Assembly (NCBI GenBank): GCA_965206595.1 | Contig: OZ242214.1 | Location: 3,360,001 to 3,424,000 of the forward strand | Direction: 5' to 3' | From: Candidatus Latescibacterota bacterium | GTDB lineage: Bacteria > Latescibacterota > UBA2968 > UBA8231 | Length of the DNA stretch: 64,000 nt | Shown here: in pieces, positions 5,813 through 40,525 of the stretch | How the letters are laid out: each line of letters opens with the position of its first letter | Position numbering within the stretch: the first letter of the stretch is position 1 | The notes under the pieces: generated by a model | What the model was told of the DNA's origin: nothing | The model's input: the letters and a program-made list of their open reading frames with translations, nothing else | Databases searched by the model: none | Position numbers and translations under genes: made by a program

Positions 5813-5844
5813 TGTCCAAGATCGCGAATTCTTCTGAATTCGCG

Positions 5845-5878: not shown

Positions 5879-5904
5879 GCCGGGAGAAGAGCACGGCAGA
5901 GTGT

Positions 5905-5981
5905 TGGTGGGCGATGCCGGGCTCGAACCAGCGACCCCCTGCTTGTAAGGCAGGTGCTCTGACCAACTGAGCTAATCGCCC
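5905..5981 (-). tRNA. tRNA-Val (anticodon TAC)
   Basis: GGGCGATTAGCTCAGTTGGTCAGAGCACCTGCCT-TAC-AAGCAGGGGGTCGCTGGTTCGAGCCCGGCATCGCCCACCA: full cloverleaf with encoded CCA. Confidence 0.97.
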
Positions 5982-5990
5982 CGGCGGAAG

Positions 5991-6019
5991 AAGGTAGAGG
6001 ATCATCTCCGGGGGGGCAA
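5991..6019 (-). promoter_or_regulatory. Putative sigma70 promoter of tRNA-Val
   Basis: TTGCCC-N17-TACCTT on the minus strand, just upstream of the tRNA. Confidence 0.5.
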
Positions 6020-7555: not shown

Positions 7556-7575
7556 GGCAGGGGGGCCTCGGCCGC

Positions 7576-9393
7576 CTATTCCCACTCGACAGTGGCGGGC
7601 GGCTTGTGGGTGATGTCGTAGTAGACGGCCTCGATCCCGTCGAGGGCAAGCAGCCTCCCGGTTACCTCTGCCAGGAAGGCCTCCGGGAGGCGCTCGAAGC
7701 GGGCGGTCATGAAGTCGTCGGTGGTAACCGGGCGCAGCACGATGCTCTCGCCGCGCCCGTCCGAGGAGAGCGGCACCAGCACCGCCGGCATCTGCGTCAC
7801 CGCGGCCATCAGCCCGTGGCGTTCCAGGGCCTCCATGGCGATCGCGTCCGCCTCCCGCAGCAGGTCGAGCCGTTCCCGCGTCAGGTACCCCTCCTTGAGA
7901 CGCTGATCCAGTCTTCGCTCCGGTCCGAGCTGGAGGACGACGCGGTTCACCTGCGGCAGCCTGTTGGTCAGCTCCGTGCTCAGCCGCTCCAGGAGATCCC
8001 AGTCGAGGAGCCCCGGGGCTGCCCCTGGGCCGGAGATCCGCACCGGGTGGGCGTAGCTGCGGCCGTCACCCTGAACGCCGACGCTGCGCAGCGGCAGCAG
8101 GTCGGCGGTGAGGCCCGAGGCCACCGCTTCGGCCAAGACCTCGCCGGGCACCTGCGCGCCCCCAGCGCCGTTCGCTTCCCCATCGCTGCACAGTACCCGC
8201 ACCGCCAGGCCGGGTCCGGGGAACGGGTGGCGCCAGACCAGGTGGCGCGGCAGCCCGAGCTTCTCTCCCAGCTCCCGCACTTCGTCCTTGTACAGGTCGC
8301 CGAGGGGCTCGACGATCTTGCCTTCGGCGAGCAGCTGCTCGACGACGGGGACGCGGTTGTGGTGGGTCTTGATGGTCTCGGCGTGATCGGTCCCGCCCGA
8401 TTCGATGCGGTCGGTGTAGAGGGTCCCCTGCCCCAGCAGCCACTCCTCGGGATCGAGAGCGAGCTCTTCGAGGGCGCGGTCGCGGGTGCGGATGAACTCG
8501 TCGCCGATGCGCAGGCGCTTGACCTCCGGATCGCTGACCCCGGCGACCGCGGCGAGGAACTCCCGGCCGGCGTCGACGACCTTGAGGTTCTCGAACCCGG
8601 ATTCCCGCATCAGCACCGCGACCGTTGCCGTCTCGTTCTTGCGCATGAAGCCGTTGTCGATGTGCAGGCCGAGGACGCGGTCGCTGCCCAGGGCCCTGTT
8701 GAGGAGCAGGAAGCAGACGCTCGAATCGACGCCGCCGCTGACGAACAGGAACAGCTTGCGGCCGGCGCAGCGCTCCCGCAGGGAGGCCACCGACTCGCCG
8801 ATGAAGTTCTCCATCGTCCAGATGCGCTCGCACCCGCACAGGTCGAGGAAGTTGTCGAGAATCCGCATCCCCGACTCGGTGTGGGTGACCTCGGGATGGA
8901 ACTGCATGCCCCAGATGCGGCGTTCCCGGTCCCCCATCGCCGCCACCGGACAGTCCTCGGTCTCGCCGAGGCGCTCGAATCCCGGCGGCATTTCCGCGAC
9001 CGTGTCGCGGTGGCTCATCCAGATGCTTTCCACCGGCGCCAGGCCGCGCAGCACCCCGGTCGGCGAGAGCACGCGCAGCGACGCCGCGCCGAACTCCATG
9101 CGGTCGCCAGGTTCGACCCGCCCTCCGAGGTGGTGGCAGAGCAGCTGGTGGCCGTAGCAGAGTCCCAGCAGCGGCAGGCCGCAGGAGGCGATCTCCGGAT
9201 CGAACGGCGGCCGGTCCTCGGCGTAGACGCTCGCCGGCCCCCCGGACAGGACGATGCCGCGGGCGTGCCGCAGGCGGTCGGGGGGCGTGTCCGGCGGGAG
9301 GGTCTCGGCGTAGACGTTGAGGCGGCGGATGCGGTTGGCGATCAGGTGGGCGTACTGACCGCCGAAGTCGAGGACGGCGATGCCGGGGTTCAC
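7576..9393 (-). CDS. guaA: GMP synthase (glutamine-hydrolysing)
   Basis: LDFGGQY, GLCYGHQ, QFHPEV, SGGVDS, IKTHHN, HPFPGPGL and C-terminal KPPATVEWE. Confidence 0.96.
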   Translation of the reverse strand: MNPGIAVLDFGGQYAHLIANRIRRLNVYAETLPPDTPPDRLRHARGIVLSGGPASVYAEDRPPFDPEIASCGLPLLGLCYGHQLLCHHLGGRVEPGDRMEFGAASLRVLSPTGVLRGLAPVESIWMSHRDTVAEMPPGFERLGETEDCPVAAMGDRERRIWGMQFHPEVTHTESGMRILDNFLDLCGCERIWTMENFIGESVASLRERCAGRKLFLFVSGGVDSSVCFLLLNRALGSDRVLGLHIDNGFMRKNETATVAVLMRESGFENLKVVDAGREFLAAVAGVSDPEVKRLRIGDEFIRTRDRALEELALDPEEWLLGQGTLYTDRIESGGTDHAETIKTHHNRVPVVEQLLAEGKIVEPLGDLYKDEVRELGEKLGLPRHLVWRHPFPGPGLAVRVLCSDGEANGAGGAQVPGEVLAEAVASGLTADLLPLRSVGVQGDGRSYAHPVRISGPGAAPGLLDWDLLERLSTELTNRLPQVNRVVLQLGPERRLDQRLKEGYLTRERLDLLREADAIAMEALERHGLMAAVTQMPAVLVPLSSDGRGESIVLRPVTTDDFMTARFERLPEAFLAEVTGRLLALDGIEAVYYDITHKPPATVEWE

Positions 9394-9598
9394 GGCGTGC
9401 TCCCCCGGGGAGAGGGTGGCTGTCGAATGGCGGAGAGAGGCCGGAATATAGCTCCGGCGGACCGCAGTGCAACCGCTCGAGACCGCGGGGCGCGCCTGCT
9501 GTCGAGCCCGCGCGTGGAAACACCGGGCATGCCTTGCCCGGAATGGTTGCCGACAGGCGAACCCGTCCGAAAAAGGCCGGACGCGATCGCCGCCAGCC

Positions 9599-12340
9599 TC
9601 ACCGGACCAGGGTCATCTTCCGCCTCAGGACCAACGCCCCGACCCTGAACTCGCAGAAATACACCCCGGACCCCGCCCGGTACCCGGAGTCGTCGGTGCC
9701 GTCCCAGACCGCTTCGTAGATCCCCGGGGCGGCCGGGGCCCTGGCCAGGCGGCGCACGAGGCCGCCGCTCAGGGAGCGCACCTCCAGGGACATATCCGCC
9801 TGGTGCGACAGCGACGCGTGGATGATGCCGACGGCATAGCGGATCCGGGTCGAGGCGTTGAACGGGTTGGGGAAATTCTGCTGCAGCTCGAAGGCGACCG
9901 GCACGCGGGGATCGAAGTTCAGCCAGGGACGCCAGGCGACCGGACCGGAGATGCGCTCGGCGATCCAGGTTTCGTCGTCTCTTCCCCACCAGTTGTTGTC
10001 GGCCAGCAGCTCCAGCGTGGACTCGTTGTCGATCAGCCGGATCGCCCCCTCCACGGCGTTGAGCTCGAGACGTTCGGGCACGCGGAGACCGGAGACCTGG
10101 AAAACCAGTTCGCTATCGGCGAAGTAGTTGCCGACGATGCTGAGCCCGGCGCTCTCGGCGATCACGGCGACGCGGTTGCCCTCGAACTGGTTCTGCTCGA
10201 TCGACACCTCCACCGAGCCCCGGGCGAGCACCCCCGTGCCCCCGGTAAAGCGATTGCCCTTGACGATGCCTTGGGAGCGGCGGCCCAGGACGAGGTTGGC
10301 GGCATCCTCGGTCTCCTCCCCGTTGCCCTCGAATTCGCTGTCGAAGCAAACAAACCGGCCCCCGACCCGCACCAGGCCGCTGGCGGCGCTGCCCTCGATG
10401 CGACTGTCGGCCACACGCACTATCCCCGCCGGTCCCGTCACTACGACGCCGTTGGCGCCGGCGTTGCGAACCAGCAGGTCCTCGAAGACGATCAGGGCGT
10501 TTTCGGAGTTGATCCGCACCCCGTCTGCGGCCGTGTTGGAGATCGTCACGCTTTCGAGGTCGAGGGAGTTGTGGAGGCCCTCCGACATGATCGCCACCGC
10601 GGCGAAGTCGATGTCGCAATCCCGCAGGGTGAGGCTTCCCGAAGAATGGATGTGGAATCCGCCCCAGTCCCCCGGCGCCGGCCGGGGCCCGGCTGGCATC
10701 ATGCGGCTGCGACGGCCCCCGGAGAAAGCGGTGAAATCCCCCAGGAGGCGGATCGCGCAGCGGTCCGGATCACCCCCGCTGCGGCGCTGGTCCTCCGTCA
10801 CCAGCACCGTCGTCCCGTTCAGCATTCTCACCGTCGCCTCCGGTTCGACGTAGAGGTCGCCGACCAGCTCCATGGTGTCGGCCCACACGTCCTCTGTTGC
10901 GATGATTCCGGCGCGCCTGCGGTCGTTCAGATCCACGTCGGCGACCATCGCCTCCCCCTGGCGGCGGATGTTCGAGATGCTGATCCCCCTCGGTGCGGCT
11001 GGATTGGAGACGACGGAGTATTCGGTGAAAAGCGTGCCGTCGAAGACGTCGGTGGCGTCTCCGGAATTGCCTTGAAAACGGGTGTTGTACTCCTCGTCCC
11101 GGGACCAGAAATCGAGGTTGTCGCGGCCGAAGTCGTACCCCTTCTCCCTGCCTTCCGGATACCCGGCGTCGAGGTAGAGCCCGTCCGCGCAGACCAGGTC
11201 GACCTTTTTCAATGCTTCCTCGTTGTTGCCGAAAGCTTTCTCGTCTACTTCCCAGACAAGCAGGCCCTCGGCCGGCAGGTTGCGTTCGTAATAGCTGTTG
11301 GCGCGCCCTCGATGCTCGACGAGGAGGTAGCGGGACTCGTTCACCTGTATGAGGACGACCTCACCGCCGGCGTTCACGTCCGCGAAGACCAGGCCTTCGG
11401 CGTCGGAATCCAGGCGGCGCAGGCGGCTGTTGGCCACCCCGAGCCAGCCCAGCTTCGCCAGGCTCCAGGAGCACAGGGGGTTGGGCCCGCCCCCGCCCCA
11501 GCCGAGGGCCCCGTGGCCCATCAGGCCCCAGCTGCCGATTCCCGCCGACTGTCTGGAGGGAGGGATCTGCTCTTGCGCCTGGAGGACATCGGTATCGTAC
11601 AGATCCAGAAGCCCGAGGGTGTGGGCGAACTCGTGGCACATGTTGCCTGCGGCCGCGGCGAAGTTCGAGCCCTGCTGCGTCACCCCTTTATCTATGCGGA
11701 TGAACCCCCCGTTTGCGCCGCGGTCGTCGGTCCGGTAGGAACTGGTCGACAACCCCAGGGAGGCGATCCCGGTGGCGTTTCGGATGATGAACCCCGGCGG
11801 CGCCGAGCGGGTGATAACGAACAGGAAATCGACGATGCCGTCGTCGTCTCCGGAATCGGGCACCCCGTCGGGCCCGTCGTTGTCGAACTGGCTGTAGTCG
11901 ACCTCCCTGTCGGAGGCGGCGAGCAGCTCGGTGACGTACTCGCCAAAACGCCCCCGCTCTCCCTCGACCGGGCTGATGTAGTCCGAGGCCGGCCCGGCCG
12001 CGGAGTATTCCTTCGGCAGGACCGAGCCGGTGATCTCGTACTGGCCCCGCGACATCTCCGAGTAGAAATGGGTGACGCTTCCAGGGAGGCCGGGATCGAA
12101 GAGGTCCTCGGCGAAGCCGGGTGGGGCGTTGCCGGGGCGCTCCTGGTCCGCGAAGCGGCCGAACAGGGCGACGGCATGGACACGGCCGGTAACCGGAGTC
12201 GCATCCAGGATCTTCTGCGTGGGTTTGGCCGCGGCGTGGGCGCACTGGAATCCTGCCTCGACAGCCGGCGCCCCCGTCTGCCCCCCGAGCAGCAGGGCGG
12301 CGCAAAGGCCGCCTTCCGCGAGCGGGAAGCGGCGCGTCAT
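9599..12340 (-). CDS. Secreted M6-family (immune inhibitor A-like) zinc metalloprotease with beta-helix region and FlgD/T9SS-like tail
   Basis: Signal peptide from ATG 12340 (MTRRFPL...); DNDGPDG.PDSGDDDG; HEFAHTLGLLDLY; W.LMG.G; LLVEHR; C-terminal NFPNPFN...WDGTD...SGVYF. Confidence 0.85.
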   Translation of the reverse strand: MTRRFPLAEGGLCAALLLGGQTGAPAVEAGFQCAHAAAKPTQKILDATPVTGRVHAVALFGRFADQERPGNAPPGFAEDLFDPGLPGSVTHFYSEMSRGQYEITGSVLPKEYSAAGPASDYISPVEGERGRFGEYVTELLAASDREVDYSQFDNDGPDGVPDSGDDDGIVDFLFVITRSAPPGFIIRNATGIASLGLSTSSYRTDDRGANGGFIRIDKGVTQQGSNFAAAAGNMCHEFAHTLGLLDLYDTDVLQAQEQIPPSRQSAGIGSWGLMGHGALGWGGGGPNPLCSWSLAKLGWLGVANSRLRRLDSDAEGLVFADVNAGGEVVLIQVNESRYLLVEHRGRANSYYERNLPAEGLLVWEVDEKAFGNNEEALKKVDLVCADGLYLDAGYPEGREKGYDFGRDNLDFWSRDEEYNTRFQGNSGDATDVFDGTLFTEYSVVSNPAAPRGISISNIRRQGEAMVADVDLNDRRRAGIIATEDVWADTMELVGDLYVEPEATVRMLNGTTVLVTEDQRRSGGDPDRCAIRLLGDFTAFSGGRRSRMMPAGPRPAPGDWGGFHIHSSGSLTLRDCDIDFAAVAIMSEGLHNSLDLESVTISNTAADGVRINSENALIVFEDLLVRNAGANGVVVTGPAGIVRVADSRIEGSAASGLVRVGGRFVCFDSEFEGNGEETEDAANLVLGRRSQGIVKGNRFTGGTGVLARGSVEVSIEQNQFEGNRVAVIAESAGLSIVGNYFADSELVFQVSGLRVPERLELNAVEGAIRLIDNESTLELLADNNWWGRDDETWIAERISGPVAWRPWLNFDPRVPVAFELQQNFPNPFNASTRIRYAVGIIHASLSHQADMSLEVRSLSGGLVRRLARAPAAPGIYEAVWDGTDDSGYRAGSGVYFCEFRVGALVLRRKMTLVR

Positions 12341-17641: not shown

Positions 17642-20600
17642 CTACCTCAGCAGGGAGATCTTCCTCCCCTCGCTGAAGTCCCCTGCCCGCAGCTCGATCA
17701 GGTAGAGGCCGCTGGCCGCCCTGTTTCCAGAATCGTCGAGCCCGTTCCAGTAGACGGCGTGGCTGCCCGCCTCGAGGTCGGCGGAGACCAGGGCGCGCAC
17801 CAGACCTCCGCGCAGGTCGTATACGCGCAGCTCGGCGCGCTCCGGCCGGGGCAGGTCGAAGCGCAGGTGGGTGCGGCTGTTGAACGGGTTGGGCCAGGCC
17901 TGGTGGAGGGCGAAGCGCTCGGGAAGCCCCTCCGCGGACGCCTCCACCGCGGTATCATGGAGAGGTTCGCTGGTCAGGAACGGGCGCCAGTCGACCTCCC
18001 CCTCAAGCAGGGCGGCGATGGCGACGCTGTCCGCCGTGCCCCAGTAGTTTCCCCGGGCATTCACCGGCAGCCCGGATTGGTTGGCGATTGCGGTGCGGTT
18101 GTTGACGAAGGAGTTGCGGGTGATCTCCCCTGGCACCCGGGAGCCGCTGATGGCCACCGCGGTGAGGTTGTTCTCGAACCGGTTGTCGATCAGCCCGGGC
18201 GCCGAATCGACCGACTCGACGCCGAAGGAGCCGTTGCGGAAGATGGAGTTGCGCGCCGTCAGGCCCTGGACTCCGGTCAGCGCCATCCCCGAGCTGCTGG
18301 CGAAATCGCTCATGTCGATCAGCCCGGTGGTGCCGCCGCTCAGCACCAGTCCGGTGCCGACGTTGTCCTCGAACAGGGTCGTCCAGACCTCCATGCGGGA
18401 ATCGGCGAAGACCGCGCCGTGGCCGATGTTGCGGGAGACGACCACGTCCTCGAACACCATCCGGGCGAGGCCGCTGCCGAGGATGCCGTTCCTGCGATTG
18501 CCGGTTATCTCGCAGCCGTGGAGCTCGACCTCCCCTTCCCACGGGTCGAGCTGCAACCCGTGCAGGGTGCTGCCGGTGACCGTGCACTTCCACAACTCGA
18601 TCTTCTGCCCCCGCCCCCCTTTCGCCAGCAGGCCGGAGCGCGGGTCCTCGTCGTCGAGCTGCCCCGACGACACGATGCTCGTCGAGATCGCCAGCAGGTT
18701 GCTGTTGCCCAGCGAGATCCCCTCCCAGCCGATGTTCTCGATGACGCTGTTGCGCACCCGCACCAGCCCGGTTCCCGAGGCCCGCAGCGCGTTTCCGGCG
18801 ACCTCCTTCAAGGTCGACCCGTCGATCGTCAGCTCGCCGAGCACGAACAGGTTGATGCCGTGAACGGTGCGCCGGACGGTGGCGTTCTCCAGGTGCGCCC
18901 TCCCTCTGCCGGAGACCTCTCCGCTCACCGCGAAGCCGCTCTGACTGATCTCGAGATGGGAGGCCTCTATTACCCCGTCCGCTTCCAGCACCAGACCGTA
19001 CCAGAGCGAATCGCTCGACGGCGAGTCGACGGTGAGCTTCACCGGGCCGGCGGGAGTGCCGGCTATCTTCAGGCTGCCTTTTACCACGAGTTCGGTCAGC
19101 CCCGGATTCTCCCCCCGCCCGGAGAGGTCGCTGGGGGCGAAGCGCACGGTCGCGCCGCTGTCGATCACCAGCTCGGAAGCCGGCGAGACGTGGACGTCCC
19201 AGGGCAGGATGCGGTCCTGCGACCAGGTCGTGACCCCGGCCGGCAGCCGCTGCCGCACGAGCCCGTAGCGCGAGTTTTCGACCAGCAGCCCGCCGGCGGC
19301 CGCGGCCTGCTCCACCTCCCCTGAACCGCCCGTCATCAGCAACAGGCCGAGCCAGTCGCCGGAGCGCGGTCGCTCCTCGGCCGACTCGATGACCACCGGG
19401 TCTGCGGAATCCCCGCGCACCTCGAGCTCGCCGTAGACGATCATCTCGCCGAGGCCGCGGTCGAAGCCCGCGGAGCGGCTGTCGCCGCGTTTGAAACGCA
19501 CCCGGGTGCCGGCCTCCAGGACCAGGCGCACCCCCGGCTCGACGACGACGTCGCCGTCGACCTCGACCTCCCCGGACCAGACGGCGTCGGCCGAGACGTT
19601 CCCCTCCACGGGCTGGCGCACGAGGATGTCGAGGCCCATGCGGCCGCCGCCGAGGTCGCGGATGTTCTCGAGGGCGATGCCGAGAGGCACGCCGCGCTCG
19701 AAGCGGGCGTGGGCTTGCAGGCCGGGATTGGTGTTCAGGTCGGCGCGCTCGAAGCGGTCGCCGTCGAAGGGGTCGGTGGCGTCCCCGCGGTTGCCGTTGT
19801 GGTCGTTGGCGTAGGTCTCGTCACGGGCCCAGAAATCGAGGTTGTCGCGGCCCCCGAAACGGTCCGGTTGCTCGCCGGGAAAGCCGCGGTCGGCGAACAG
19901 TCCATCGGCGCAGACGAGGTCGACCTGCTTGTGGCGCTCCTCGTCGTTGTCCGCCCCCTCGTCGACGTGCCAGACCAGCAGCCCGCCCGCGGGTATGTTG
20001 CGGTTGTAGAAGCTGCCGGAGTTCTGGCGGTTCTCGACCAGGAAATACTCCTCCTCGGAGACCGGGATCCGGTACACCTGCCCGCCGCGGTCGATCTGCT
20101 CCATCTCGAGGCCGCGCAGGGATCCGGTGACTTCGACGAGGTTCCCGTTCTCCTTGCCGAGCCAGCCCAGCTGCGCCAGCGACCAGGCGCTGAAGGGGTT
20201 GGGGCCGTCCTCGACGCCCCAACCGAGGGTCCCCAACCCCATCAGTCCCCACTTGCCGATCCCGGCGCCGTCGAGCCCCCAGTCGATCTCCCTGCCGAGA
20301 AGCACCGTCGATTGGTCGAACAGGTCGGGGAGCCCGAGGACGTGGGCGAACTCGTGGCACATGGTCGCGGCGGTCACGGAGAAGACGTGGCCCCGCTGGG
20401 TGGTCCCCCCGAAGCCCGAGAAGCGGCCGCGAACGCGGATGAATCTCCCGCCGGCGGCCGCGTCGTCGCTGATGAAGTCGGTGTCGAACCCGAGAGTGGC
20501 CAGCCCGGTCGCCGTGCGCAGCAGGAAGTTCACCGGCACGGTGAGCAAGTTGATGAAGACGATGTCGACGTAGCCGTCGTCGTCCCCGGAATTCGGCATC

Positions 20601-21217
20601 CCGTCGGGGCCGTCGTTGTCGAAGCGGCCCATGTCGACGTCGGCGTCGGCCTGGGTCAGGATCTCGAGGTTGAAGCGCGGGTAGTCGCCTGAGGCCCCTC
20701 CCTCTTCGGGCAAGTAGGAGGCGGCCTCGTCCAGGGAGCTGTAGCGTTTAGGCAGGACTTCTCCCCGCGCCCGCAGCTGGCCGCGCGACATCTCGTCGTA
20801 GAAGTGGGTGAAGCTGCCGGGTATGCCGGCGTCGAACAGGTCGTCGGCCCAGGAGGGCTTGGCGTCGGCGCCCTCGGCCTCGCCGCGGAACTTGGCAAAG
20901 ACAACCAGGGCGTTGAAGGTCCCCGTCACCGTGCCGCGGCTGTCGAGCAGCGTTGCCCGGCTGGCGCCCCTCTTCGCGCGCAGACGCCGCGGCGTCTGCG
21001 CGCGAAGAGGGGCCCCCGCGGAAAACCCGGAGAGAGGTTCCCCGGGCGAATACTCCTCCCCGGTGCCGCCGCAGGCGACGACCCCTTCGGGGGTCAGCTC
21101 GACTTCGGAGGCGCTGCCGGCGTAGCCGTCGCCGGGGCCGAGGCAGGCGAGCAGCGAGACCGCCGCGGCCGCCAGGACGCGGCCGCCCGCGGCTACGGGC
21201 GAGGCGTCCTGCGGCAT
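17642..21217 (-). CDS. Second secreted M6-family metalloprotease with long beta-helix region and FlgD/T9SS-like tail
   Basis: ATG at 21217 followed by a signal-like segment; DNDGPDGMPNSGDDDG; HEFAHVLGLPDLF; YFLVENR; WPNPFN...SGLY tail. Paralog of 9599-12340. Confidence 0.85.
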   Translation of the reverse strand: MPQDASPVAAGGRVLAAAAVSLLACLGPGDGYAGSASEVELTPEGVVACGGTGEEYSPGEPLSGFSAGAPLRAQTPRRLRAKRGASRATLLDSRGTVTGTFNALVVFAKFRGEAEGADAKPSWADDLFDAGIPGSFTHFYDEMSRGQLRARGEVLPKRYSSLDEAASYLPEEGGASGDYPRFNLEILTQADADVDMGRFDNDGPDGMPNSGDDDGYVDIVFINLLTVPVNFLLRTATGLATLGFDTDFISDDAAAGGRFIRVRGRFSGFGGTTQRGHVFSVTAATMCHEFAHVLGLPDLFDQSTVLLGREIDWGLDGAGIGKWGLMGLGTLGWGVEDGPNPFSAWSLAQLGWLGKENGNLVEVTGSLRGLEMEQIDRGGQVYRIPVSEEEYFLVENRQNSGSFYNRNIPAGGLLVWHVDEGADNDEERHKQVDLVCADGLFADRGFPGEQPDRFGGRDNLDFWARDETYANDHNGNRGDATDPFDGDRFERADLNTNPGLQAHARFERGVPLGIALENIRDLGGGRMGLDILVRQPVEGNVSADAVWSGEVEVDGDVVVEPGVRLVLEAGTRVRFKRGDSRSAGFDRGLGEMIVYGELEVRGDSADPVVIESAEERPRSGDWLGLLLMTGGSGEVEQAAAAGGLLVENSRYGLVRQRLPAGVTTWSQDRILPWDVHVSPASELVIDSGATVRFAPSDLSGRGENPGLTELVVKGSLKIAGTPAGPVKLTVDSPSSDSLWYGLVLEADGVIEASHLEISQSGFAVSGEVSGRGRAHLENATVRRTVHGINLFVLGELTIDGSTLKEVAGNALRASGTGLVRVRNSVIENIGWEGISLGNSNLLAISTSIVSSGQLDDEDPRSGLLAKGGRGQKIELWKCTVTGSTLHGLQLDPWEGEVELHGCEITGNRRNGILGSGLARMVFEDVVVSRNIGHGAVFADSRMEVWTTLFEDNVGTGLVLSGGTTGLIDMSDFASSSGMALTGVQGLTARNSIFRNGSFGVESVDSAPGLIDNRFENNLTAVAISGSRVPGEITRNSFVNNRTAIANQSGLPVNARGNYWGTADSVAIAALLEGEVDWRPFLTSEPLHDTAVEASAEGLPERFALHQAWPNPFNSRTHLRFDLPRPERAELRVYDLRGGLVRALVSADLEAGSHAVYWNGLDDSGNRAASGLYLIELRAGDFSEGRKISLLR
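20966..21013. repeat. Perfect 48-bp palindrome inside the M6 protease CDS
   Basis: GCCCCTCTTCGCGCGCAGACGCCG|CGGCGTCTGCGCGCGAAGAGGGGC is its own reverse complement, with no loop. Confidence 0.95.
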
Positions 21218-22608
21218 TCGGCGATGAACTCGGAAGCCTCGAAATCGTAGGTTCGGAACGGGTCGTCGAGGTTGAGGTACATCTCGTCCTCGACGTAGAT
21301 CGAATCCCAGTCGATGACGTAGCGGGCCTTGTGATCGGTCAGCTCGCGCATCACCGCGGACCGCGCCCGCGCCCGGGTGTCCTGCGGCGGCGTCACGATC
21401 GCCCGGTTCACCATTTCGTCGGAGACCACCTTCTTGGTGATGCCCTGCTCCCTGAGGTCGAAGTAGAGCCCCCTGTCGGGGTTGAGGTTGTGGTACTCGA
21501 GGTCGAGGCTCTGGACCCAGGTGTCCTGCCAGTCGAGCTGCTCGGCCTCCATGAACGACTCGAGCAGCCATTTCTTCGTCACCCAGTCGACGCGGTCGAC
21601 GAGCGCCATCGGGTCGTGGACGAGGGCGTCGAGCACGAAGCGCCACTCGTCGAGAACCCAGTCCGCCTCCCTGTCGAGGCCGCGCAGGTAGCGCTCGGCG
21701 AGCTCGAGGTACTGGTACTGGATCTCGCTCGCCGTCGTGTACCTGCCGTCCTCGAGCTGGACTTCCCAGCGGTACTCGAGGTCGCGGGAGATCTCCCGGA
21801 TCGCCTGCACCGGGTCGAGAAGCTTGACGTCGGGGACGATGCGCTCCTCGAGCAGTTCGAGCATCAGGGCGGTGGTGCCGACCTTCAGCGCCGTCGCGTA
21901 CTCCGACATGTTCGAGTCGCCGACCAGAAGATGCAGGCGGCGGTAGAGGCCCCAGTCCGCCAGCGGCTCGTCCCGGGTGTTGATGATGGCGCGGCTGAAC
22001 TGGATCCACTGGTAGATCTCGGTGACGATGTGGTCGGCGCGCTGGGAGATCTGGTAGGGGACCTCGCGGTCCTCGCCGCTGCCGCCGTACTCGAAGATGT
22101 CGGTGTGGCAGCCGACCCGTCCGGACCCGGCGTAGATCTGGCGGCTGACGAAGAAGGGCAGGATCGCCGGCAGCAGGACCTGGGCGAAGGGGACGTCGCG
22201 GCGCACGAGGTAGTTCTCGTGACAGCCGAAGGTCGCGCCGGTGTAGTGGTCGATGTTGTTCTTGAAGAACGACGCGTTCTCTGCCATGCCCAGCTGGTCG
22301 AGGGCCCGCTGCACCATCAGCTCGCCGGCGCGGTCCGCGGCGACGAGATCGAACAGCCCGCGGCATTCCGGGGTCGCGTACTCGACGTGACCCATGTCGA
22401 TGTACATCCTGCCGCCGTTGAACAGGAAGCCGCCGTTGCCTGGCGGTTCGTCGCGGCCGCGGTAGTGGATGTCGACGATGCCGAGGCCCTCGCGGTAGAA
22501 GACACAGTCCTTGGTCTTCACCGAGATGAAATCCGGACTGAGGAAGGGGTCCGAATCCGGGGGCATGCAGCCGAATTCGATTTCGAGTCCGTATATGCGG
22601 TTGCGCAT
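21193..22608 (-). CDS. pafA: Pup/UBact-protein ligase
   Basis: RIYGLEIEFG, NGGRMYIDMGHVEYATPEC, KNNID, GCHENY, SQRADH, INTRDEP, RRLHLLVGDSN and DLEYH. Confidence 0.92.
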   Translation of the reverse strand: MRNRIYGLEIEFGCMPPDSDPFLSPDFISVKTKDCVFYREGLGIVDIHYRGRDEPPGNGGFLFNGGRMYIDMGHVEYATPECRGLFDLVAADRAGELMVQRALDQLGMAENASFFKNNIDHYTGATFGCHENYLVRRDVPFAQVLLPAILPFFVSRQIYAGSGRVGCHTDIFEYGGSGEDREVPYQISQRADHIVTEIYQWIQFSRAIINTRDEPLADWGLYRRLHLLVGDSNMSEYATALKVGTTALMLELLEERIVPDVKLLDPVQAIREISRDLEYRWEVQLEDGRYTTASEIQYQYLELAERYLRGLDREADWVLDEWRFVLDALVHDPMALVDRVDWVTKKWLLESFMEAEQLDWQDTWVQSLDLEYHNLNPDRGLYFDLREQGITKKVVSDEMVNRAIVTPPQDTRARARSAVMRELTDHKARYVIDWDSIYVEDEMYLNLDDPFRTYDFEASEFIAECRRTPRP

Positions 22609-22628
22609 CTGACTTGCCGGGAGCCGGC

Positions 22629-23390
22629 CTACTGCGCGAACCGGCTCAGGGCCTCTTCGAGCTCGGCCGGCGGCAACAGGCGGAACTTCGATTTCGTCGG
22701 CAGGGTGCGGTCGAGCACGGCGGCTTCGATCCGCTGGCCGCCGTCGAGGGCCGTGGCGACGCTCTCGGAGATCTCGCCGGCGGTCGGTTTCCCGGTGCGC
22801 CCGGGTTCGCCGTAGAGCCGCCCCACCGCCCAGGTCTCGAGGGCGCGCTCCAGGGCCTCCTGCAGACCGGGAGCCTCGGGCTCCGCGGCGGCGTGCCGGG
22901 CTATGGCGTCGCGGCTCTCCGCGGTGCCCGCGACTGCAGCCGCGGCCCCGGAGGCGGCGAACGATCCGTCGGCGTCCACGGTGTAGAAGGCCACGCCCCC
23001 GGCTCCGGCGTCGAGCTCGGCGACAAGAACGCGGGCGATGAAGGGAGAGTGGAAGATCTCGTCGAAGGCGGTCTTCATCAGCGGCCCGATGCCGAAGCTG
23101 ACCAGCCGCTGCAGGGAGACATCCCGGGCCGAGAGATTGAAGGCCTCGACGTGGGCTATGTCGATGACGGCCTTGCGCAGCTTTTCGATGTCGGCCGGGT
23201 GGCCGATGGCGGCGAAGGCGACCTGGTTGTAGACCTCGAACAGCTTGCGCGGGCCCGGGGTCGTGGTCAGCAGCAGGATGCCGTCGTCGTAGACAGAGCC
23301 GACCACCGGGCTGGCGGACTTGAGCTGGTCCTCGAGGTACTCGCGGCGATTGCGGATCGCCTCGACCCAGCGGTAGGGTTCATCGAGCAT
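22629..23390 (-). CDS. prcA: 20S proteasome alpha subunit
   Basis: MLDEPYRW..., SPVV, RKLFEVYNQVAFAAIG..ADIEKLR and IEAAVLDR; lies directly after prcB. Confidence 0.9.
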   Translation of the reverse strand: MLDEPYRWVEAIRNRREYLEDQLKSASPVVGSVYDDGILLLTTTPGPRKLFEVYNQVAFAAIGHPADIEKLRKAVIDIAHVEAFNLSARDVSLQRLVSFGIGPLMKTAFDEIFHSPFIARVLVAELDAGAGGVAFYTVDADGSFAASGAAAAVAGTAESRDAIARHAAAEPEAPGLQEALERALETWAVGRLYGEPGRTGKPTAGEISESVATALDGGQRIEAAVLDRTLPTKSKFRLLPPAELEEALSRFAQ

Positions 23391-23394
23391 GGGC

Positions 23395-24162
23395 TTAGCG
23401 GAGCGTCTCGTACAGCGCCTGCAGGTCCGGTTCGGCGATCGCCTCGACGCCCGCGGCGGTGACGCGCATGACCTGTGGGAAGATCCGCGCAACCGGTTTG
23501 TAGCCGCCGGTGGCGGTGTCGTACTCGGCCGCGGTTTCGAGCATCCTCAGGATCAGCGAGAGGGATTCTTCCGCTTCCATCTTGGCCAGCGGCCTTTCCC
23601 CCCACCGGTTCAGATAGTAGAGGGCGCCGCGGATGACATGGGATCCCGAACCGGTTGTGCAGAAGTCGACCGACTCGAAGGTGGCCCCGAGAACGTCGTA
23701 GAAGAAGATCTTGCCGCCGCCGGGACCGCTGTCGTCGAAAGTCGCGTAGATCGGCACCACGGCGCCGATTCCCTGCAGGGCCATGGGCAGGTTCTCTCGC
23801 ATCAGCCGCGACAGGGTTCTCAGCCTGCCGTCGAGGCTCATCTCCTGCAGCTGCGAGCGACGGTAGTGCTGGAAGGAGATCTCGAGCATGCGCGCGATCT
23901 CGTAGGCGTTGGCCGGCGAGCCCGACAGCGCCAGCACCGACCCGTCGTCAACGGCAAGGACCTTGTCGGCGCGGTCGTAGATCACGGTGTTGCCCATGGT
24001 CGCGCGGCGGTCGCCGGCGACGAGGACGCCGTCGCGGCAGCGCAGCGCGAGAATGGTGGTGCCTTCGGTCGACTCGACCGCGGCTTCGGCGCCGCCAGCC
24101 GGCGGCGCCTCGGGCAACTGCCCGTTCTGTTTCAGGAGATTGAGGAAATCGGTGTGTTCCAA
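23395..24162 (-). CDS. prcB: 20S proteasome beta subunit
   Basis: Propeptide then EG|TTILA (catalytic Thr1), AGDRRAT.G, GSGS and DTATGG. TTG start at 24162 is inferred; the longer track ORF is an upstream over-extension. Confidence 0.9.
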   Translation of the reverse strand: MEHTDFLNLLKQNGQLPEAPPAGGAEAAVESTEGTTILALRCRDGVLVAGDRRATMGNTVIYDRADKVLAVDDGSVLALSGSPANAYEIARMLEISFQHYRRSQLQEMSLDGRLRTLSRLMRENLPMALQGIGAVVPIYATFDDSGPGGGKIFFYDVLGATFESVDFCTTGSGSHVIRGALYYLNRWGERPLAKMEAEESLSLILRMLETAAEYDTATGGYKPVARIFPQVMRVTAAGVEAIAEPDLQALYETLR

Positions 24163-24250
24163 GGCGATGGCCCTGTGCGGCGGCCGGCCGGCGCTGCCGC
24201 CCTTCTGCGGGCCGCGCCCTGGTGGCCTGTCCCGGGAGGGGACGCCGGAC

Positions 24251-24442
24251 TCACTCGCCCGTGCGCTGGCGGTAGCGGCGGGCTTGGTTCGGGTCGACCT
24301 TGCGCATGCGGCGCAGCAGGTCGTCGGTGTTCGGCCGTTCCACCTTGGGGCGGCGGGGTCCTGGATCGTCGCCGTCACCGCCGCCGCCGTCCATGGGCCT
24401 GGTCGGCCGCGGCGCCCGGTCGCGCATTTCAACTGACCGCAT
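24251..24442 (-). CDS. ubact: Ubiquitin-like protein UBact
   Basis: 63 aa, ending LLRRMRKVDPNQARRYRQRTGE (the R[ST]G[EQ] UBact terminus rather than Pup GG[QE]); sits between dop and prcB; GAGGAG ribosome-binding site. Confidence 0.92.
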   Translation of the reverse strand: MRSVEMRDRAPRPTRPMDGGGGDGDDPGPRRPKVERPNTDDLLRRMRKVDPNQARRYRQRTGE

Positions 24443-25973
24443 GGTGCATCTCCTCGAGCTGGGTTATCAACTCCGACACGCTGTCGGCCTCTTCCAAGGC
24501 CGCAGTAAAGGTAGCCGCCGTCTCCCTCTCGACACAACCCTTCAGGTCGACCGTCTCGACCCTGCCGCCGACGGTGAACTCGATGCTGTCCCAGTTCAGG
24601 GAGCGTACCTCGGCGCCGAACTTCTGCAGGCAGCGGCCGCGAAAAGCGGCGCGCGTCGCCTCGGGGGCGTCGACCATGGCGCGCGCCACCTCGCCGTCGC
24701 TCACCAGCTTCCCGCCGTCGCCCTCCTCGGCGAGCAGCGGGAACAGTCCTTCCTCCGGATCGATGTTGTGGTACTCGAGGTCCTGGCTCTGCAGCCAGGC
24801 GCGGTCGTCCGGGTCGCCCCAGTCGAGATCTTCGGCCTCGGCGAAGGCGTCGAGCATCCACTTCTTCGTCACCCAGTCGCACCGGCCCCTGAGCCGCATC
24901 GGATCCTCGGCGAGGGCCTCCAGTGTCTCCTTCCAGGCGCCGAGCACCCAGTCGGTTTCGTTGTCTCTCCCCGCGGCCGCGGCCGCGGCCGCGTCGAGAC
25001 AGGCGCGCTGGATCTCGAGCGCGGTCGTGTGCCGGCCGCCTTCGAGCTCGACCTCCCAGGCGCGCCGCTGATCCCGGGAGACCGCCTTTACCGCGCCGAC
25101 CGGGTCTGCGAGGACGAGCGGCGGCAGCTGCCCGCGCTCGAGCAGTTCGAGAACGAGCAGCGCCGTGCCGGTTTTCAGGGCCGTGGCGAACTCGGACATG
25201 TTGGCGTCGCCGTTGATCAGGTGCAGGCGCCGGTAGAGGGCGGCGTCGGCGTGCGGCTCGTCGCGGGTGTTGACCAGCGGCCGCCGCGTCATCGTGTCGA
25301 CGCTGGCGATGCACTCGAAGAAATCGGAGCGCTGCGCCAGCTGGAACACCGCCTGGCCGGCGCCGCGGTCCGCCTCGACTCCGACCTTGCCGGCGCCGGC
25401 GAAGATCTGGCGCGTCACCAGGAACGGCAGCAGGCCGTCGATCACCTGCTGGAACGGGATCTCGCGGCGCACGAGGTAGTTCTCGTGGCAGCCGTAACTG
25501 TGGCCCTCGAAGTCTGTGTTGTTCTTGTAGAGGCGGACGGTGCCGCCATCGCCGCGGGTCCCGGTGCGCCGGCGCGCGCACTGCAGCAGGATGCGTTCCC
25601 CGGCGCGGTCGAAGGCGACCAGGTCGCGCAGCGAGAAGACCTCGGGGGTCGAGTACTCCGGGTGGGTGTGATCGTTGTAGAGGCGCGCGCCGTTGGTGAG
25701 TATCAGGTCGCTCTTCAGCTCCTTCAGCGGGATGCGGCGGTCGCGGTCGCGCTGCAGGTGGTCCGCCTCGTCCTGGTCGTTGAGCAGCTCCTCGACCTCG
25801 AAACCGCGCGCGTCCAGGCGCGGGTTCTCCAGCGCGTAATCCCAGAGGGCAACGAAATCCTCGAGCAGGTAGCAGCGGATCAGCTCCATCGACTCGACGA
25901 CGACGTCGAGCTTCTCCACGCCGTCGACCTGGATCCCGTACTCGGTTTCGAGACCGAACAGCCGGTCGCCCAA
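24429..25973 (-). CDS. dop: Pup/UBact deamidase-depupylase
   Basis: LFGLETEYG, TNGARLYNDHTHPEYSTPE, LYKNNTD, SYGCHENY and NTRDEPHAD..YRRLH. Confidence 0.92.
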   Translation of the reverse strand: MGDRLFGLETEYGIQVDGVEKLDVVVESMELIRCYLLEDFVALWDYALENPRLDARGFEVEELLNDQDEADHLQRDRDRRIPLKELKSDLILTNGARLYNDHTHPEYSTPEVFSLRDLVAFDRAGERILLQCARRRTGTRGDGGTVRLYKNNTDFEGHSYGCHENYLVRREIPFQQVIDGLLPFLVTRQIFAGAGKVGVEADRGAGQAVFQLAQRSDFFECIASVDTMTRRPLVNTRDEPHADAALYRRLHLINGDANMSEFATALKTGTALLVLELLERGQLPPLVLADPVGAVKAVSRDQRRAWEVELEGGRHTTALEIQRACLDAAAAAAAGRDNETDWVLGAWKETLEALAEDPMRLRGRCDWVTKKWMLDAFAEAEDLDWGDPDDRAWLQSQDLEYHNIDPEEGLFPLLAEEGDGGKLVSDGEVARAMVDAPEATRAAFRGRCLQKFGAEVRSLNWDSIEFTVGGRVETVDLKGCVERETAATFTAALEEADSVSELITQLEEMHHAVS

Positions 25974-25974
25974 A

Positions 25975-27756
25975 TCAGATGACCTTGGCCGCTGCTTCCG
26001 CTTCCCGGTCGCGGTCCTCCGCAGAACTCACCGGCGCTACGCGGACGACGTTCTCGGGATCGTAGTCGAGCAGCTTGAGCCAGTCCTCGACGCTGTCGGT
26101 GGGGGGAAAGACCTCGTTCTCGCGGTACTCGGAGCGGATGGCGTTGGCGAGGTCCTCGGAGCGGATGCCGGCGTCGGCGTCGCTCTCGGCGATGGCGCGC
26201 TTGATCGCCGATTCCTTGGCGCGCTGGACGATGCTGTCGATCAGCGCGCCGCTGGCGAGATCGCCGAAATGCAGGTTTTCCAGCCGGCCGCTGCGCAGGC
26301 CGACCTCGAGGAACCGGGTCTCCTCGCCGCGCGCGAACAGCCCCTTCACCGCCTCATCGATCAGGGCCCGGCGGGCTTCCTCCGCACCGCCGTAGCGCTC
26401 GACCTCGCCCCGGTCGAGCGGCAGGTCCTCGGTGAGGTAGATCCCGAAGATTTCGCGCGAGGCCTCGAAATCCGGGCGCAGGACCTTGATCTTGCGGTCG
26501 ATGCGGCCCGGTCTGAGGATGGCCGGGTCGATGAGGTCGTGCCGGTTGGAAGCGAGAATGATGACGACGTCCTGCAGCGACTCGATGCCGTCCATCTCGG
26601 TGCAGAACATCGGCACCACCGTGTTGGCGATGTGGTGGCTGCGCATCGACCGCCGCGTCCCGAGAATCGATTCCGCCTCGTCGATGAAGACGAAGGGCAG
26701 GAACCCCTCCTTCCGCTTCTGCCGCGCCTGCGCGAAGATCTCCCGGACCATGCGCTCGGTCTCGCCGAGCCACATGTTGAGGATCTCCGGGCCCTTGACG
26801 TGCATGAAGTACTCCCTGACATCAAGGCCCTCTGCGCTGCGCAGGTGCTGCACGAGGTTGTAGGCCGTCGCCTTGCCGATGAGGGTCTTGCCGCAGCCCG
26901 GCGGGCCGTAGAGCAGGAACCCCTTCGGCGCCGAGTAGCGGAACTTTTCGAACAGCTCCGGGTGCCTTGCCGGCAGCTCGATGGTATCGCGGATCCCCCT
27001 AATCGCCTCCTCCTGGCCGCCGATACGGTCCCACGTCATTTCCGGGATTTCCTCGAGGAAGTACTCCCTGCTCTCGCGCGATTGCAGCAGCTCGAGGGCG
27101 ACCCTCGTCGAGGCATCGGTGCGGACCTCGTCCCCCGCCTTGAGCTCGAGGCCGGCGAGCTCCTCGGCGCGTTCGAGAACGAAGTCGCTGGTAGCGTGCT
27201 CGTTGCCGATGCGCAGGCGGCCGTCGGGGAGGACGTCGGTGATTCTCACCACCGGCCCGGCGGGGTTTCTCGGCAGCACCCCGACGACGGCGTACGCCTC
27301 GTTGATCAGAACGCGCCCCCCTACTTTGAGCTCGCGGGGGTCGACGCGCGGGTCGACGTTGGCGAAGTACTCGGAGCCGCTGACGAGGATGGTCGCGATC
27401 CCCTCTCTGGGAGCGCCGATGCAGATGCCGACCCGGTTGGAGGGGGAGGTCACCTTTTCCAGGGCGGCCTCGAGCTCGACCAGGGCGCGCCGCGCCTCCT
27501 GGAAGGTGATCTCGCGATCCATCAGCTGCCGCCGCAGCTGGTAGAGCAGCGGCCGCGACGGGTCGCGGTCCGGCAACAGGATCAGCATCTGGTCGACGAG
27601 GCGCAGCGGCTCTTCGTCGAAGTCGCGCCGCGCCTCCTCCTCCGGGTCGCCGCGCAGGTAGGACTCGAACTCCTCGAACTCGTCGCCGGGCCGTCCCCCG
27701 CCGGCCGGGTCGCCGTCGGGGTCGCCGAAATCCGGGTAGTCGCGATCGCTGTTCAT
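25975..27756 (-). CDS. arc: Proteasome-associated AAA+ ATPase ARC/Mpa
   Basis: N-terminal coiled coil plus OB folds; GPPGCGKT; VKGPEILNMWLGETER; FIDEAE; IDPAILRPGRIDRKI. Confidence 0.92.
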   Translation of the reverse strand: MNSDRDYPDFGDPDGDPAGGGRPGDEFEEFESYLRGDPEEEARRDFDEEPLRLVDQMLILLPDRDPSRPLLYQLRRQLMDREITFQEARRALVELEAALEKVTSPSNRVGICIGAPREGIATILVSGSEYFANVDPRVDPRELKVGGRVLINEAYAVVGVLPRNPAGPVVRITDVLPDGRLRIGNEHATSDFVLERAEELAGLELKAGDEVRTDASTRVALELLQSRESREYFLEEIPEMTWDRIGGQEEAIRGIRDTIELPARHPELFEKFRYSAPKGFLLYGPPGCGKTLIGKATAYNLVQHLRSAEGLDVREYFMHVKGPEILNMWLGETERMVREIFAQARQKRKEGFLPFVFIDEAESILGTRRSMRSHHIANTVVPMFCTEMDGIESLQDVVIILASNRHDLIDPAILRPGRIDRKIKVLRPDFEASREIFGIYLTEDLPLDRGEVERYGGAEEARRALIDEAVKGLFARGEETRFLEVGLRSGRLENLHFGDLASGALIDSIVQRAKESAIKRAIAESDADAGIRSEDLANAIRSEYRENEVFPPTDSVEDWLKLLDYDPENVVRVAPVSSAEDRDREAEAAAKVI

Positions 27757-27817: not shown

Positions 27818-28558
27818 TCAGTGGATGACGTCCCCGAGCCTGTCGTAGCGGGTGCGCGTCGGAAGCGTGGGGAGGTTCCAGATGAAGCTGCCGGTGTCCA
27901 TCAACAGTTGCGGCAGCCCCCGCAGGATTCCGGGACCGCTCTTGAGCGTCGCCGACCAGTAGATGATCATCGCCTTTCCCTTGATGAGGCTGCGCGGTAC
28001 CGGACCAAAGACGCGGCTGTCGCTGCTGTTGTCGCGGTTGTCGCCCATCATGAAAAACTGGTCCTCCGGCACCCGGTAGGGGCCGAAGTTGTCCCGCATG
28101 CTGTAGGAGGCCGGGTGGATGCCGGGGTCGGCGTGTTTCGACATCGGCGGGCTCGGGAAGATCTCGCCGTCGACGTAGAGAACCTTGTCGATTACCTGCA
28201 CGACCTGGCCGCCGACCGCGATGCAACGCTTGATCAGATCCCGCCCCGGCTCGGTCTTGGAGCGGAAGATCACGATGTCCCACGGCTGCGGGTCGCGCAG
28301 GGCGGGCAGCCTGAACAGGGGGGCGGCGACGAAGGGAATCTCGACGGGGGCGCCGTACACGAACTTGTTGGCCAGCAGGTAATCCCCGACGAAGAGGGTG
28401 TCCTCCATCGATCCGGAGGGTATGTAGAAGGCCTGGACCACGGTGCTGCGGATGAGCAGGGCGAGGCCTATGGCGACGACGATCGACGACAGGTACTCCC
28501 GCACACCCGACGGCTGCCGCCGCGGCGGGTCCGACTTCTGCTGGTTGTCAGGAGGCAT
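27818..28558 (-). CDS. lepB: Signal peptidase I
   Basis: Transmembrane helix; IPSGSMEDTL; LIKRC; MGDNRDNSSDSR. Confidence 0.93.
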   Translation of the reverse strand: MPPDNQQKSDPPRRQPSGVREYLSSIVVAIGLALLIRSTVVQAFYIPSGSMEDTLFVGDYLLANKFVYGAPVEIPFVAAPLFRLPALRDPQPWDIVIFRSKTEPGRDLIKRCIAVGGQVVQVIDKVLYVDGEIFPSPPMSKHADPGIHPASYSMRDNFGPYRVPEDQFFMMGDNRDNSSDSRVFGPVPRSLIKGKAMIIYWSATLKSGPGILRGLPQLLMDTGSFIWNLPTLPTRTRYDRLGDVIH

Positions 28559-39900: not shown

Positions 39901-40247
39901 TACCCTTCCGCGTTCCGGGCCAGCAGCAGGACCTTGGGCCACTGCGTCTTGCCCGCGGCGCCGCGCGCCCGGTGCGCCGGGACCGGAACGCCGGAAGCCC
40001 CGCCGCGGCCGCGAACCGGCTCCCGCTCACCGGGGTCCGGCTCGGTCAGCTCGACCCCGAGCAGCGGCTTGATCCCCGCCTTCCGGCACTCGAGGTAATG
40101 CAGGATCAGGCCGCTCATGCGGTCGGTGTCGGTGAGCGCCACGGCCGGCAGCCCCAGGCTCCCGGCTCTCTCCGCGATTTCCCCGACGCCGGGAACGCCG
40201 GCGTGGAAGGAGAACATCGAGTGGCAATGAAGGGGAGCGTAGGTCAC
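36999..40247 (-). CDS. dnaE2: Error-prone DNA polymerase III alpha (DnaE2-like)
   Basis: PHP domain (LHCHS, ALTD, GVE), RGSAANS, PPDADLDF, HPGG, KFDILG, FCKSHS and a C-terminal OB fold; no tau-binding C-terminal domain; adjacent to the ImuB-like gene. Confidence 0.85.
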   Translation of the reverse strand: MTYAPLHCHSMFSFHAGVPGVGEIAERAGSLGLPAVALTDTDRMSGLILHYLECRKAGIKPLLGVELTEPDPGEREPVRGRGGASGVPVPAHRARGAAGKTQWPKVLLLARNAEGYGDLCRIVSDRHLAAADFTFARTFARAWPNLFLLTADPGVLRVLAAGPNRGRLFGELVRNSAFTRARSAELAAAAGSLGLSLTASNDSFFLDPGDWQIHRVLTAIGLNSTLSRLRPGEAAPRAAVLASPARMEELFADCPEALANTREIAAGCDVELELNRWIMPRAAVPSGHTPESRLAELAADGLEANYGGHSAAVREKARQLQAMELEVIAKLGYASYFLIVKEIRDWANERFRGGYRRPADCTILRGSAANSITFYNIGVSDLDPIRYDLYFQRFLNEDRASPPDADLDFGWDERELVYDFIVDRWGAERVAVTGTTIHFRARAAFRETAKVFGYTDDQVTAILESRKTRTQRIEDGEIAMLWKLARRLEGKPRYLGQHPGGVLITNGPISRHVACEPSGGAKNRAVTQIDMHNGIDDLGLIKFDILGNGSLSVLRDALAQIDEQGIEDPGVWDLEKCYAEPRVREIIRKGRTKGVFYIESPAQRRLNQKAQAETFEEIAITSSLVRPAGSAYTQLYVERERKRKMGIRDWEFVHPALEPILRETHDVCAFQEDVTKICHQVAGLSFRQADMIRKMMNSQHEGAPDDGTWRATERAFLQGCGDHAGLSGEQARELWKRVSSFTGFSFCKSHSATYAQLSFQCAYLKAHFPAQFLAAVISNGHGFYRRDVYLNEARRWGIRVLPTDVNESGVRYRGRGALMRPGMMHLRGVREKALEAVVAERRAGGRFRDLPDFSHRVPGLHKKEIERLILVGALDGFGLTQPELLWQLDDVAAARGGAASAAAPLLDGLALRPPVPEGLRDYSLAEKCLNELELLGYMISGEILEILDMHPAAAGAVPAADIGRHAGRRIKLFGRRVTDRVHQVQRRGEAMMFLTIEDKSESADVVLWPDVFERCTDVVAGPGPFEVRGRVTEDWGTFTVEADSIRAVDWSPNEIDFELASRKLAESVEGVRRYGDVATAAA

Positions 40248-40293
40248 TTGATTCAGGTGGACGGGAAGAGGGGAGACGGCCGGTGACGGTCGA

Positions 40294-40344
40294 TTGACAC
40301 ATTAAGTGCACATATGTATAGTTGTCTCAGTGAGGCCGTGTCAA
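40294..40344. promoter_or_regulatory. Overlapping divergent sigma70 promoters with a candidate operator
   Basis: Plus strand TTGACA(40294)-N17-TATAGT(40317). Minus strand TTGACA(40344-40339)-N18-TATACA(40320-40315). Imperfect palindrome TGCAC-ATAT-GTATA at 40307-40320. Confidence 0.65.
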
Positions 40345-40525
40345 CGGAAAAAACGGCCGCTTGGTAGTTTTGACGGAATCCCCCGCGTTGGATTTCCTTA
40401 CGATGCTTTGAAGGAGTACAGGGACTTTCTCCACACCCTGGGCAACGGAAAGAGCTTGTCGCGATGGATACCGTTACCGAGGTATTCGACTGCATTGGGC
40501 AGCACGGTAGACCATACGGAAGCTG

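Follow-up and report, generated by a model that had tools for sequence, protein, structure and literature searches.

A UBact tagging and 20S proteasome operon in a Latescibacterota genome

Introduction

Two described systems stand closest to the operon reported here, in which the gene of the ubiquitin-like modifier UBact lies among genes for a 20S proteasome, its ATPase ARC and two enzymes of the Pup ligase family. These are the Pup-proteasome system of actinobacteria and the UBact loci of Gram-negative phyla. Iyer et al. 2008 (PMC2588565) report Pup-type conjugation, with tags ending in G-[EQ], from Nitrospirae, Verrucomicrobia and others, and count the Nitrospirae and Verrucomicrobia proteins as Pup orthologues. 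The title of Lehmann, Udasin, Livneh and Ciechanover (2017, Biochemical and Biophysical Research Communications 483:946) describes this very arrangement in Gram-negative bacteria. The operon was found in a stretch of 64,000 nucleotides of a Candidatus Latescibacterota genome (assembly GCA_965206595.1, contig OZ242214.1, positions 3,360,001 to 3,424,000, forward strand), hereafter the window, whose own numbering is used throughout.

Compared with the UBact loci of Gram-negative phyla, the window operon shows no difference of substance: it has the same mpa-dop-ubact-prcB-prcA-pafA string in a non-actinobacterial host, and its tag, encoded between dop and prcB, likewise passes the family models PF20513 and NF033388 and has the G-[EQ] end. 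With the actinobacterial Pup-proteasome system it shares the six components and their order, the Dop loop, an ARC made of two OB domains and an AAA domain, the Thr1/Asp17/Lys33 set of PrcB, and a tag that ends in G-E or G-Q. Unlike that system, it has a tag without a Pup sequence match, an ARC whose tail is an aliphatic pair instead of GQYL, a PafA-like enzyme devoid of the Val insertion and of the alpha-loop TT, and a very divergent alpha subunit. The operon is an ordinary member of the already catalogued UBact system (Lehmann et al. 2017, PF20513, NF033388). The novelty that an initial annotation of this DNA had implied for its UBact-20S system did not survive, since the arrangement has been published, Pfam and NCBIfam models exist, and relatives are already named in GenBank. 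The genes very probably make up a functional operon for UBact tagging and a proteasome, most likely run like actinobacterial pupylation.

Results

Six intact genes in a compact operon

The genes arc, dop, ubact, prcB, prcA and pafA lie back to back on the minus strand of the window (21193-27756), and all of them are intact. The first, arc (25975-27756, minus strand), encodes a Mpa/ARC-type proteasomal AAA ATPase of 593 amino acids (AAA 105.7, Prot_ATP_ID_OB_N 46.4 and Prot_ATP_ID_OB_C 49.2 bits). It is followed by the gene of a Dop-like putative deamidase/deconjugase (24429-25973, minus strand; 514 amino acids, TTG start, Pup_ligase 519.1 bits), which has a Dop loop, and by ubact (24251-24442, minus strand), which starts with ATG and encodes the modifier of 63 amino acids. 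The 20S beta subunit gene prcB (23395-24162, minus strand; 255 amino acids, TTG start, Proteasome PF00227 95.5 bits), the gene of the divergent 20S alpha subunit prcA (22629-23390, minus strand; 253 amino acids, Proteasome 22.8 and TIGR03691 62.6 bits) and the pafA-like gene of the presumed UBact ligase (21193-22608, minus strand; 471 amino acids, no Dop loop, Pup_ligase 458.3 bits) complete the set. Spacing is tight: one nucleotide separates arc from dop, 88 separate ubact from prcB, four prcB from prcA and 20 prcA from pafA, and the ubact ATG lies inside dop, so that the two genes share 14 nucleotides. The coordinates of the contiguous six-gene set given in the initial annotation are correct to the base, its catalytic motifs are intact as claimed, and family searches place all six proteins as expected.

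In ARC, two OB domains precede one AAA domain (PF17758, PF16450, PF00004), and the protein aligns to M. tuberculosis Mpa chains with 345.2 (5KWA, residues 105-576) and 341.4 bits. It carries the motifs GPPGCGKT and FIDEAE, with a pore loop MWLG (KFVG in Mpa). The first canonical prcB start past the ubact stop is the TTG at 24162. From there a propeptide of 34 residues leads to Thr1 (codon 24060-24058), Asp17 and Lys33; the processing region reads ...STEG before the cut and TTILALRCRDGVLVAGD17...ADK33 after it. PrcA passes the Proteasome cut-off of 22.4 bits only just, its TIGR03691 match spans residues 11-248, and the protein is kept in related loci.

Related loci were collected by a scan with the Dop-like protein, one genome per species, which yielded 80. 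In 66 of them all six genes share one order and strand, the remaining 14 being split or cut by contig ends. The G-TT motif of PrcB is present in 70 of 74 relatives.

The tag and its terminal residue

UBact scored far above both curated cut-offs (74.3 versus 27.8 bits for PF20513, 81.9 versus 35 bits for NF033388). Its C-terminus reads RTGE followed by a stop, the terminal Glu being encoded at 24256-24254, so that the modifier ends as the initial annotation had said. No match to Pup was found: a Pfam search at E values up to 10 returned, apart from UBact itself, just a chance match to DUF3563, and a profile of 31 UBact sequences gave 0 matches among PDB chains at E values up to 10.

The open reading frame was found in 74 of the 80 related loci, as 62 distinct sequences of 59-67 amino acids, all ATG-started. 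The six loci in which it was missing either are truncated at a contig end or belong to a split cluster, and UBact lies elsewhere in all four of the genomes checked. Invariant residues fill the C-terminal half (R45, M46, R47, V49, D50, P51, and Q53 through G62), and the C-terminus VDPNQARRYRQRTG[EQ] is unchanged in 74 of 74 reading frames found. Because of its presence in 74 of 80 loci and of this invariant half, ubact is not a chance reading frame, and its conservation, on which the initial annotation had hung its proposal, is borne out.

The last residue varies: 43 of the tags end in RTGQ and 31 in RTGE. The window UBact and its two nearest relatives end in Glu, the next relatives in Gln, and at least five switches between the two were counted on the Dop tree (72 rows). 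Dop is intact in both the E-ended and the Q-ended groups and would therefore have a role beyond deamidation, most simply tag removal. This family pattern fits the earlier proposal that the window UBact, with its terminal Glu, would be conjugation-ready and that Dop would serve only for its removal: the split of 43 to 31, the repeated switches and the intact Dop all agree with it, by analogy with Pup.

Two enzymes of the Pup ligase family

The motifs GhExE, GCHENY and NTRDEP and the catalytic Asp (D101 in the Dop-like, D71 in the PafA-like protein) are intact in both enzymes. By its sequence the first paralogue is clearly Dop-like. It aligned to A. cellulolyticus Dop with 412.1 bits and to C. 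glutamicum PafA with 242.1 bits, and its alignment to 4B0R runs through the Dop loop of about 40 residues. The score for TIGR03688 was 434.2 versus 353.5 bits for TIGR03686, which is 81 bits in favour of Dop. Its diagnostic residues are D101-H102, Ser at position 13, Pro at 15 and Ile at 7, with positions numbered as in Table 1 of Hecht et al. 2020 (PMC7947786). An alignment was made that joins a Nonomuraea pair to 76 Dop-like sequences and 65 PafA-like ones; the catalytic D-H and the Dop loop are retained in the 76 Dop sequences.

The second paralogue shows a series of PafA-side characters in the same alignment, which it has in common with Nonomuraea PafA and with the PafA column of the table by Hecht et al. 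It has no Dop loop, an N-terminal LSPD, Phe at position 7 and Ala-Thr at 13-14; the motif GDSNMSE replaces the GDANMSE of Dop, a two-residue insertion and an Asp stand ahead of the conserved Trp (position 46), as in PafA, and the C-terminal DPF is present. Its alpha-loop begins with His-Ile (His at position 25) and ends with Ser-Arg (Ser at position 33), both of PafA type. The TIGR03686 score was 358.5 versus 349.2 bits for TIGR03688, a gap of 9 bits. GenBank relatives of the enzyme already carry the name 'PafA2 family protein'.

Modelled together, the PafA-like enzyme and UBact received a complex score of 0.80, the best of three controls reaching 0.01. Among solved complexes 116 of 157 attain the score mark, and among mismatched pairs two of 215; these counts are only rough because our own alignments were used. 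Three runs shared at least 73% of their contacts, with a partner pLDDT (predicted local distance difference test) of at least 50. In the model, UBact (residues 37-63) runs along residues 348-390 of the enzyme and has its tail at residues 11, 13-15 and 71-74, the sites of GhExE and of the catalytic Asp. The model places the UBact tail in the active site of the PafA-like enzyme; its pass may reflect likeness to a known complex, because that of PafA with Pup (4BJR) has been solved.

Signs of expression, and observations that weigh against a pupylation-like reading

Several observations speak against the reading of the operon as a working counterpart of pupylation, and they are collected here together with the signs of expression, which speak for it. 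Five of the six proteins, all but UBact, remain under the actinobacterial equivalog cut-offs of the NCBIfam models. Scores and cut-offs were 457.7 and 504.75 bits for ARC (TIGR03689), 434.2 and 492.3 for Dop, 358.5 and 551.3 for PafA, 161.2 and 191.9 for PrcB (TIGR03690), and 62.6 and 139.05 for PrcA (TIGR03691). The hidden Markov model check that had been suggested for UBact, Dop and PafA came out mixed: UBact exceeds the PF20513 and NF033388 cut-offs, and Dop and PafA fall below those of TIGR03688 and TIGR03686. In the literature searched, no biochemical study of any UBact system was found.

As to expression, contigs from three RNA libraries (labelled sponge metagenome) were 93-99% like the operon and covered 18 to 22 of 30 bins. 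One contig of 296 nucleotides corresponds to 24248-24543, with the whole of ubact and its junction with dop, and has two differences. These data are contigs that carry no strand, ends or levels, and the uncovered bins in X18-X20 are uninformative. They are no proof of transcription, because DNA can occur in such libraries; they give a weak hint that the operon is expressed.

The remaining points concern the PafA-like enzyme and the tail of ARC, and each of them feeds an alternative. By score, the enzyme is ambiguous. Against single proteins it is closer to Dop: it reached 282.7 bits with solved Dop chains versus 245.4 with PafA chains, and 294.4 versus 270.1 bits with the Nonomuraea Dop and PafA. 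It is 48% identical to its own paralogue over 379 residues. The PafA-specific Val insertion (position 10) behind the catalytic Asp is missing (D71-MGHV-EY), Pro is retained at position 15 as in Dop (Ala in PafA), and two alpha-loop threonines which Hecht et al. 2020 give as common to both enzymes are absent. It deviates from PafA also at position 12 (Ser in PafA) and at alpha-loop positions 26-32, and the loop has a sequence of its own, HIVTEIYQWIQFSR, on which the 65 sequences agree at the 90% level. A tree of 38 rows paired each paralogue with its Nonomuraea counterpart, the Dop/PafA split receiving 12% support in the Shimodaira-Hasegawa-like approximate likelihood ratio test (SH-aLRT); the alternative topology, in which the Nonomuraea Dop and PafA group together, was not rejected (approximately unbiased test, p-AU 0.56). 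In these trees Nonomuraea is the sole actinobacterial genome, a chromosome filed among plasmids, and the Tsukamurella fragment H2 was left out.

Such data would suit paralogue roles unlike those of actinobacteria, after a duplication separate from the Dop/PafA split, with the loop-less enzyme acting as a second hydrolase or with both enzymes ligating and hydrolysing. We consider this unlikely. The missing Dop loop, LSPD, Phe 7, GDSN, Asp 46 with its insertion, and DPF are common to PafA but absent from the aligned Dops, and a conserved operon with a tag and its remover but no ligase would make no sense. According to Hecht et al. 2020 (PMC7947786), the alpha-loop is the discriminating element, removal of the Dop loop together with replacement of the alpha-loop is enough to make Dop a ligase, and the Nitrospirae Dop and PafA sit in two well-supported actinobacterial clusters. 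We therefore keep the PafA-like enzyme as the probable UBact ligase and, from its sequence characters, as a likely orthologue of PafA. As a firm label, the 'pafA' of the initial annotation is overstated: the absent Dop loop and several PafA-type residues agree with it, but the equivalog cut-off was missed, and the Dop/PafA split has 12% support in the tree.

The second point is the C-terminus of ARC, which lacks GQYL and ends in AAAKVI. Among 78 related ARCs with their C-terminus in the locus, 59 end in VI, nine in IV, seven in VV and one each in AI, SV and TV. A Tyr is found in none of the 78 tails, and the linker before the terminal pair is variable; the Nonomuraea ARC ends in GQYL. In a wider sample, 31 full-length ARC-like rows hand-picked among the 150 representatives listed, ten tails were of the x-Y-L/F kind, seven ended in an aliphatic pair and 14 were of other kinds. 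The five rows nearest to the query ARC end in VI (P0122, P0123), AI (P0124), II (P0126) and IE (P0125), and the ten that end in x-Y-L/F are more distant from it. A tyrosine-less ARC tail was not mentioned in the literature searched for GQYL and UBact, whose coverage did not extend to the founding UBact paper.

Pupylation in Corynebacterium runs without any proteasome. UBact might likewise be regulatory rather than degradative, or ARC might not engage the 20S particle in the manner of Mpa, another activator or none doing so. The missing penultimate Tyr would agree with this, all the more as GQYL is essential to open the mycobacterial proteasome, according to a 2025 review (PMC12288473). Such a reading appears very improbable to us: arc, prcB and prcA stay with the tag genes in 66 of the 80 loci, the aliphatic pair at the end of ARC is kept while the linker before it varies, as one would expect for a docking motif, and the genome has no other Proteasome-family gene (no HslV) or Pup_ligase gene to turn to. 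The single UBact match of the genome, both of its Pup_ligase matches and both of its Proteasome matches come from the operon. Degradation of tagged proteins by the 20S proteasome, fed by ARC, remains the preferred reading.

Host and distribution of the operon

The host genome, a single contig, measures 7.05 Mb, with a completeness of 92.87% judged from marker genes. The two nearest loci (98% and 92% identity) and most others of the 80 are titled Candidatus Latescibacterota; the rest include a few labelled Gemmatimonadota, Handelsmanbacteria or 'bacterium', and two Chthoniobacterales. The claim of a diderm, non-actinobacterial host is borne out in its second half by these relatives. For the first half, 10 Omp85/BamA-family matches were found in the genome (best 172 bits), in a search whose control was positive in diderm controls only, and they make an outer membrane plausible. 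A search for LpxC gave no match, which at a completeness of 92.87% does not show its absence. From these sequence matches, a diderm host is well supported.

Of 168 genomes from the phylum, 128 contain UBact. The class of the window has four families, in which 69 of 75, 3 of 3, 22 of 22 and 31 of 31 genomes were positive; one more family had 2 of 2, and the other nine had none of 34. Since UBact is spread through one class of the phylum, the operon is an old trait there and not a recent import.

Some loci depart from this layout. Tandem UBact matches of 80.6 and 53.9 bits occur in one genome (G038:C69:7179-7304 and 7454-7576), and two others (G066 and G108) have two UBact matches each, on separate contigs. 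Between dop and ubact, there 1.9 kb apart, the locus L025 carries a reading frame of 400 amino acids (8575-9777), rich in Lys, Glu and Asn and foreign-looking in composition. In the Chthoniobacterales (Verrucomicrobiota) genomes G169 and G170 (loci L070, L072, L082 and L083) the cluster is split, the dop contig being apart from the ubact-prcB-prcA contig; arc is upstream of dop in L070, and the end of a PafA-like gene lies upstream of ubact in L082.

Flanking genes and signals

The signal peptidase I gene lepB (27818-28558, minus strand; Peptidase_S26 155.2 bits) lies 61 nucleotides upstream of arc and is present in 46 of the 80 loci. On the other side, at 17642-21217 (minus strand), a protein of 1191 amino acids is encoded, with a lipoprotein-like signal (LLAC), a HEFAH motif and Pfam matches to Beta_helix, NosD and a C-terminal FlgD_ig. 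Its ATG lies 25 nucleotides before the pafA stop, and a homologue is found in 48 of the 80 loci, mostly downstream of pafA and on the same strand. We take both neighbours as a sign of gene order kept within a sub-lineage and not as evidence of membership in the system.

Between 17000 and 31500, a single promoter-like site turned up, just upstream of lepB (28631-28603), versus 0.5 expected, and four terminator-like sites versus 6.6 expected; neither count is evidence either way. The sole Rfam match in the window is a tRNA (5908-5981), and there is none in the operon. The G+C content is 49-61% at 1-2000, 4001-6000, 40001-42000 and 46001-58000, versus about 68-70% elsewhere, and these segments may be foreign islands.

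Discussion

From the gene content, and from analogy with pupylation, we infer the following course of events. UBact would be made with a free C-terminal Glu and hence need no deamidation. The loop-less PafA-like enzyme would bind the conserved C-terminal half of UBact, use ATP to activate the terminal Glu at its gamma-carboxylate and then link this group to lysines of the target. A hexamer of ARC would recognise the tag, unfold the target and feed it into the 20S particle formed by PrcA and PrcB. The Dop-like enzyme would take the tag off, and in the Q-ended relatives it would also deamidate it.

Two features of the operon, the ARC tail with its conserved aliphatic pair and a ligase that is only partly PafA-like, may be undescribed details of the UBact system. 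A bolder idea combines them, and we put it forward as a tentative one that is more likely wrong than right: the UBact-type unfoldase would dock to the 20S particle, or gate it, through a [VI][IV]-COOH end, which would add a third type of activator tail to HbYX and GQYL, and the ligase would be an intermediate between Dop and PafA. Neither the aliphatic-tail docking nor the intermediate ligase was found in the literature searched, the founding UBact paper lying outside its coverage. If true, such an intermediate could show how the ligase arose from a hydrolase.

Hundreds of equivalent operons are public, near-identical ones included. The intact and compact operon of the window, with its Glu-ended tag, is a convenient gene set for a first reconstitution, which is of practical value and not a discovery. 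As tags with Glu and with Gln ends occur inside one phylum, they can serve as natural paired controls for Dop as a deamidase, and the tyrosine-less tail of ARC poses a testable question on how bacterial proteasomes are opened.

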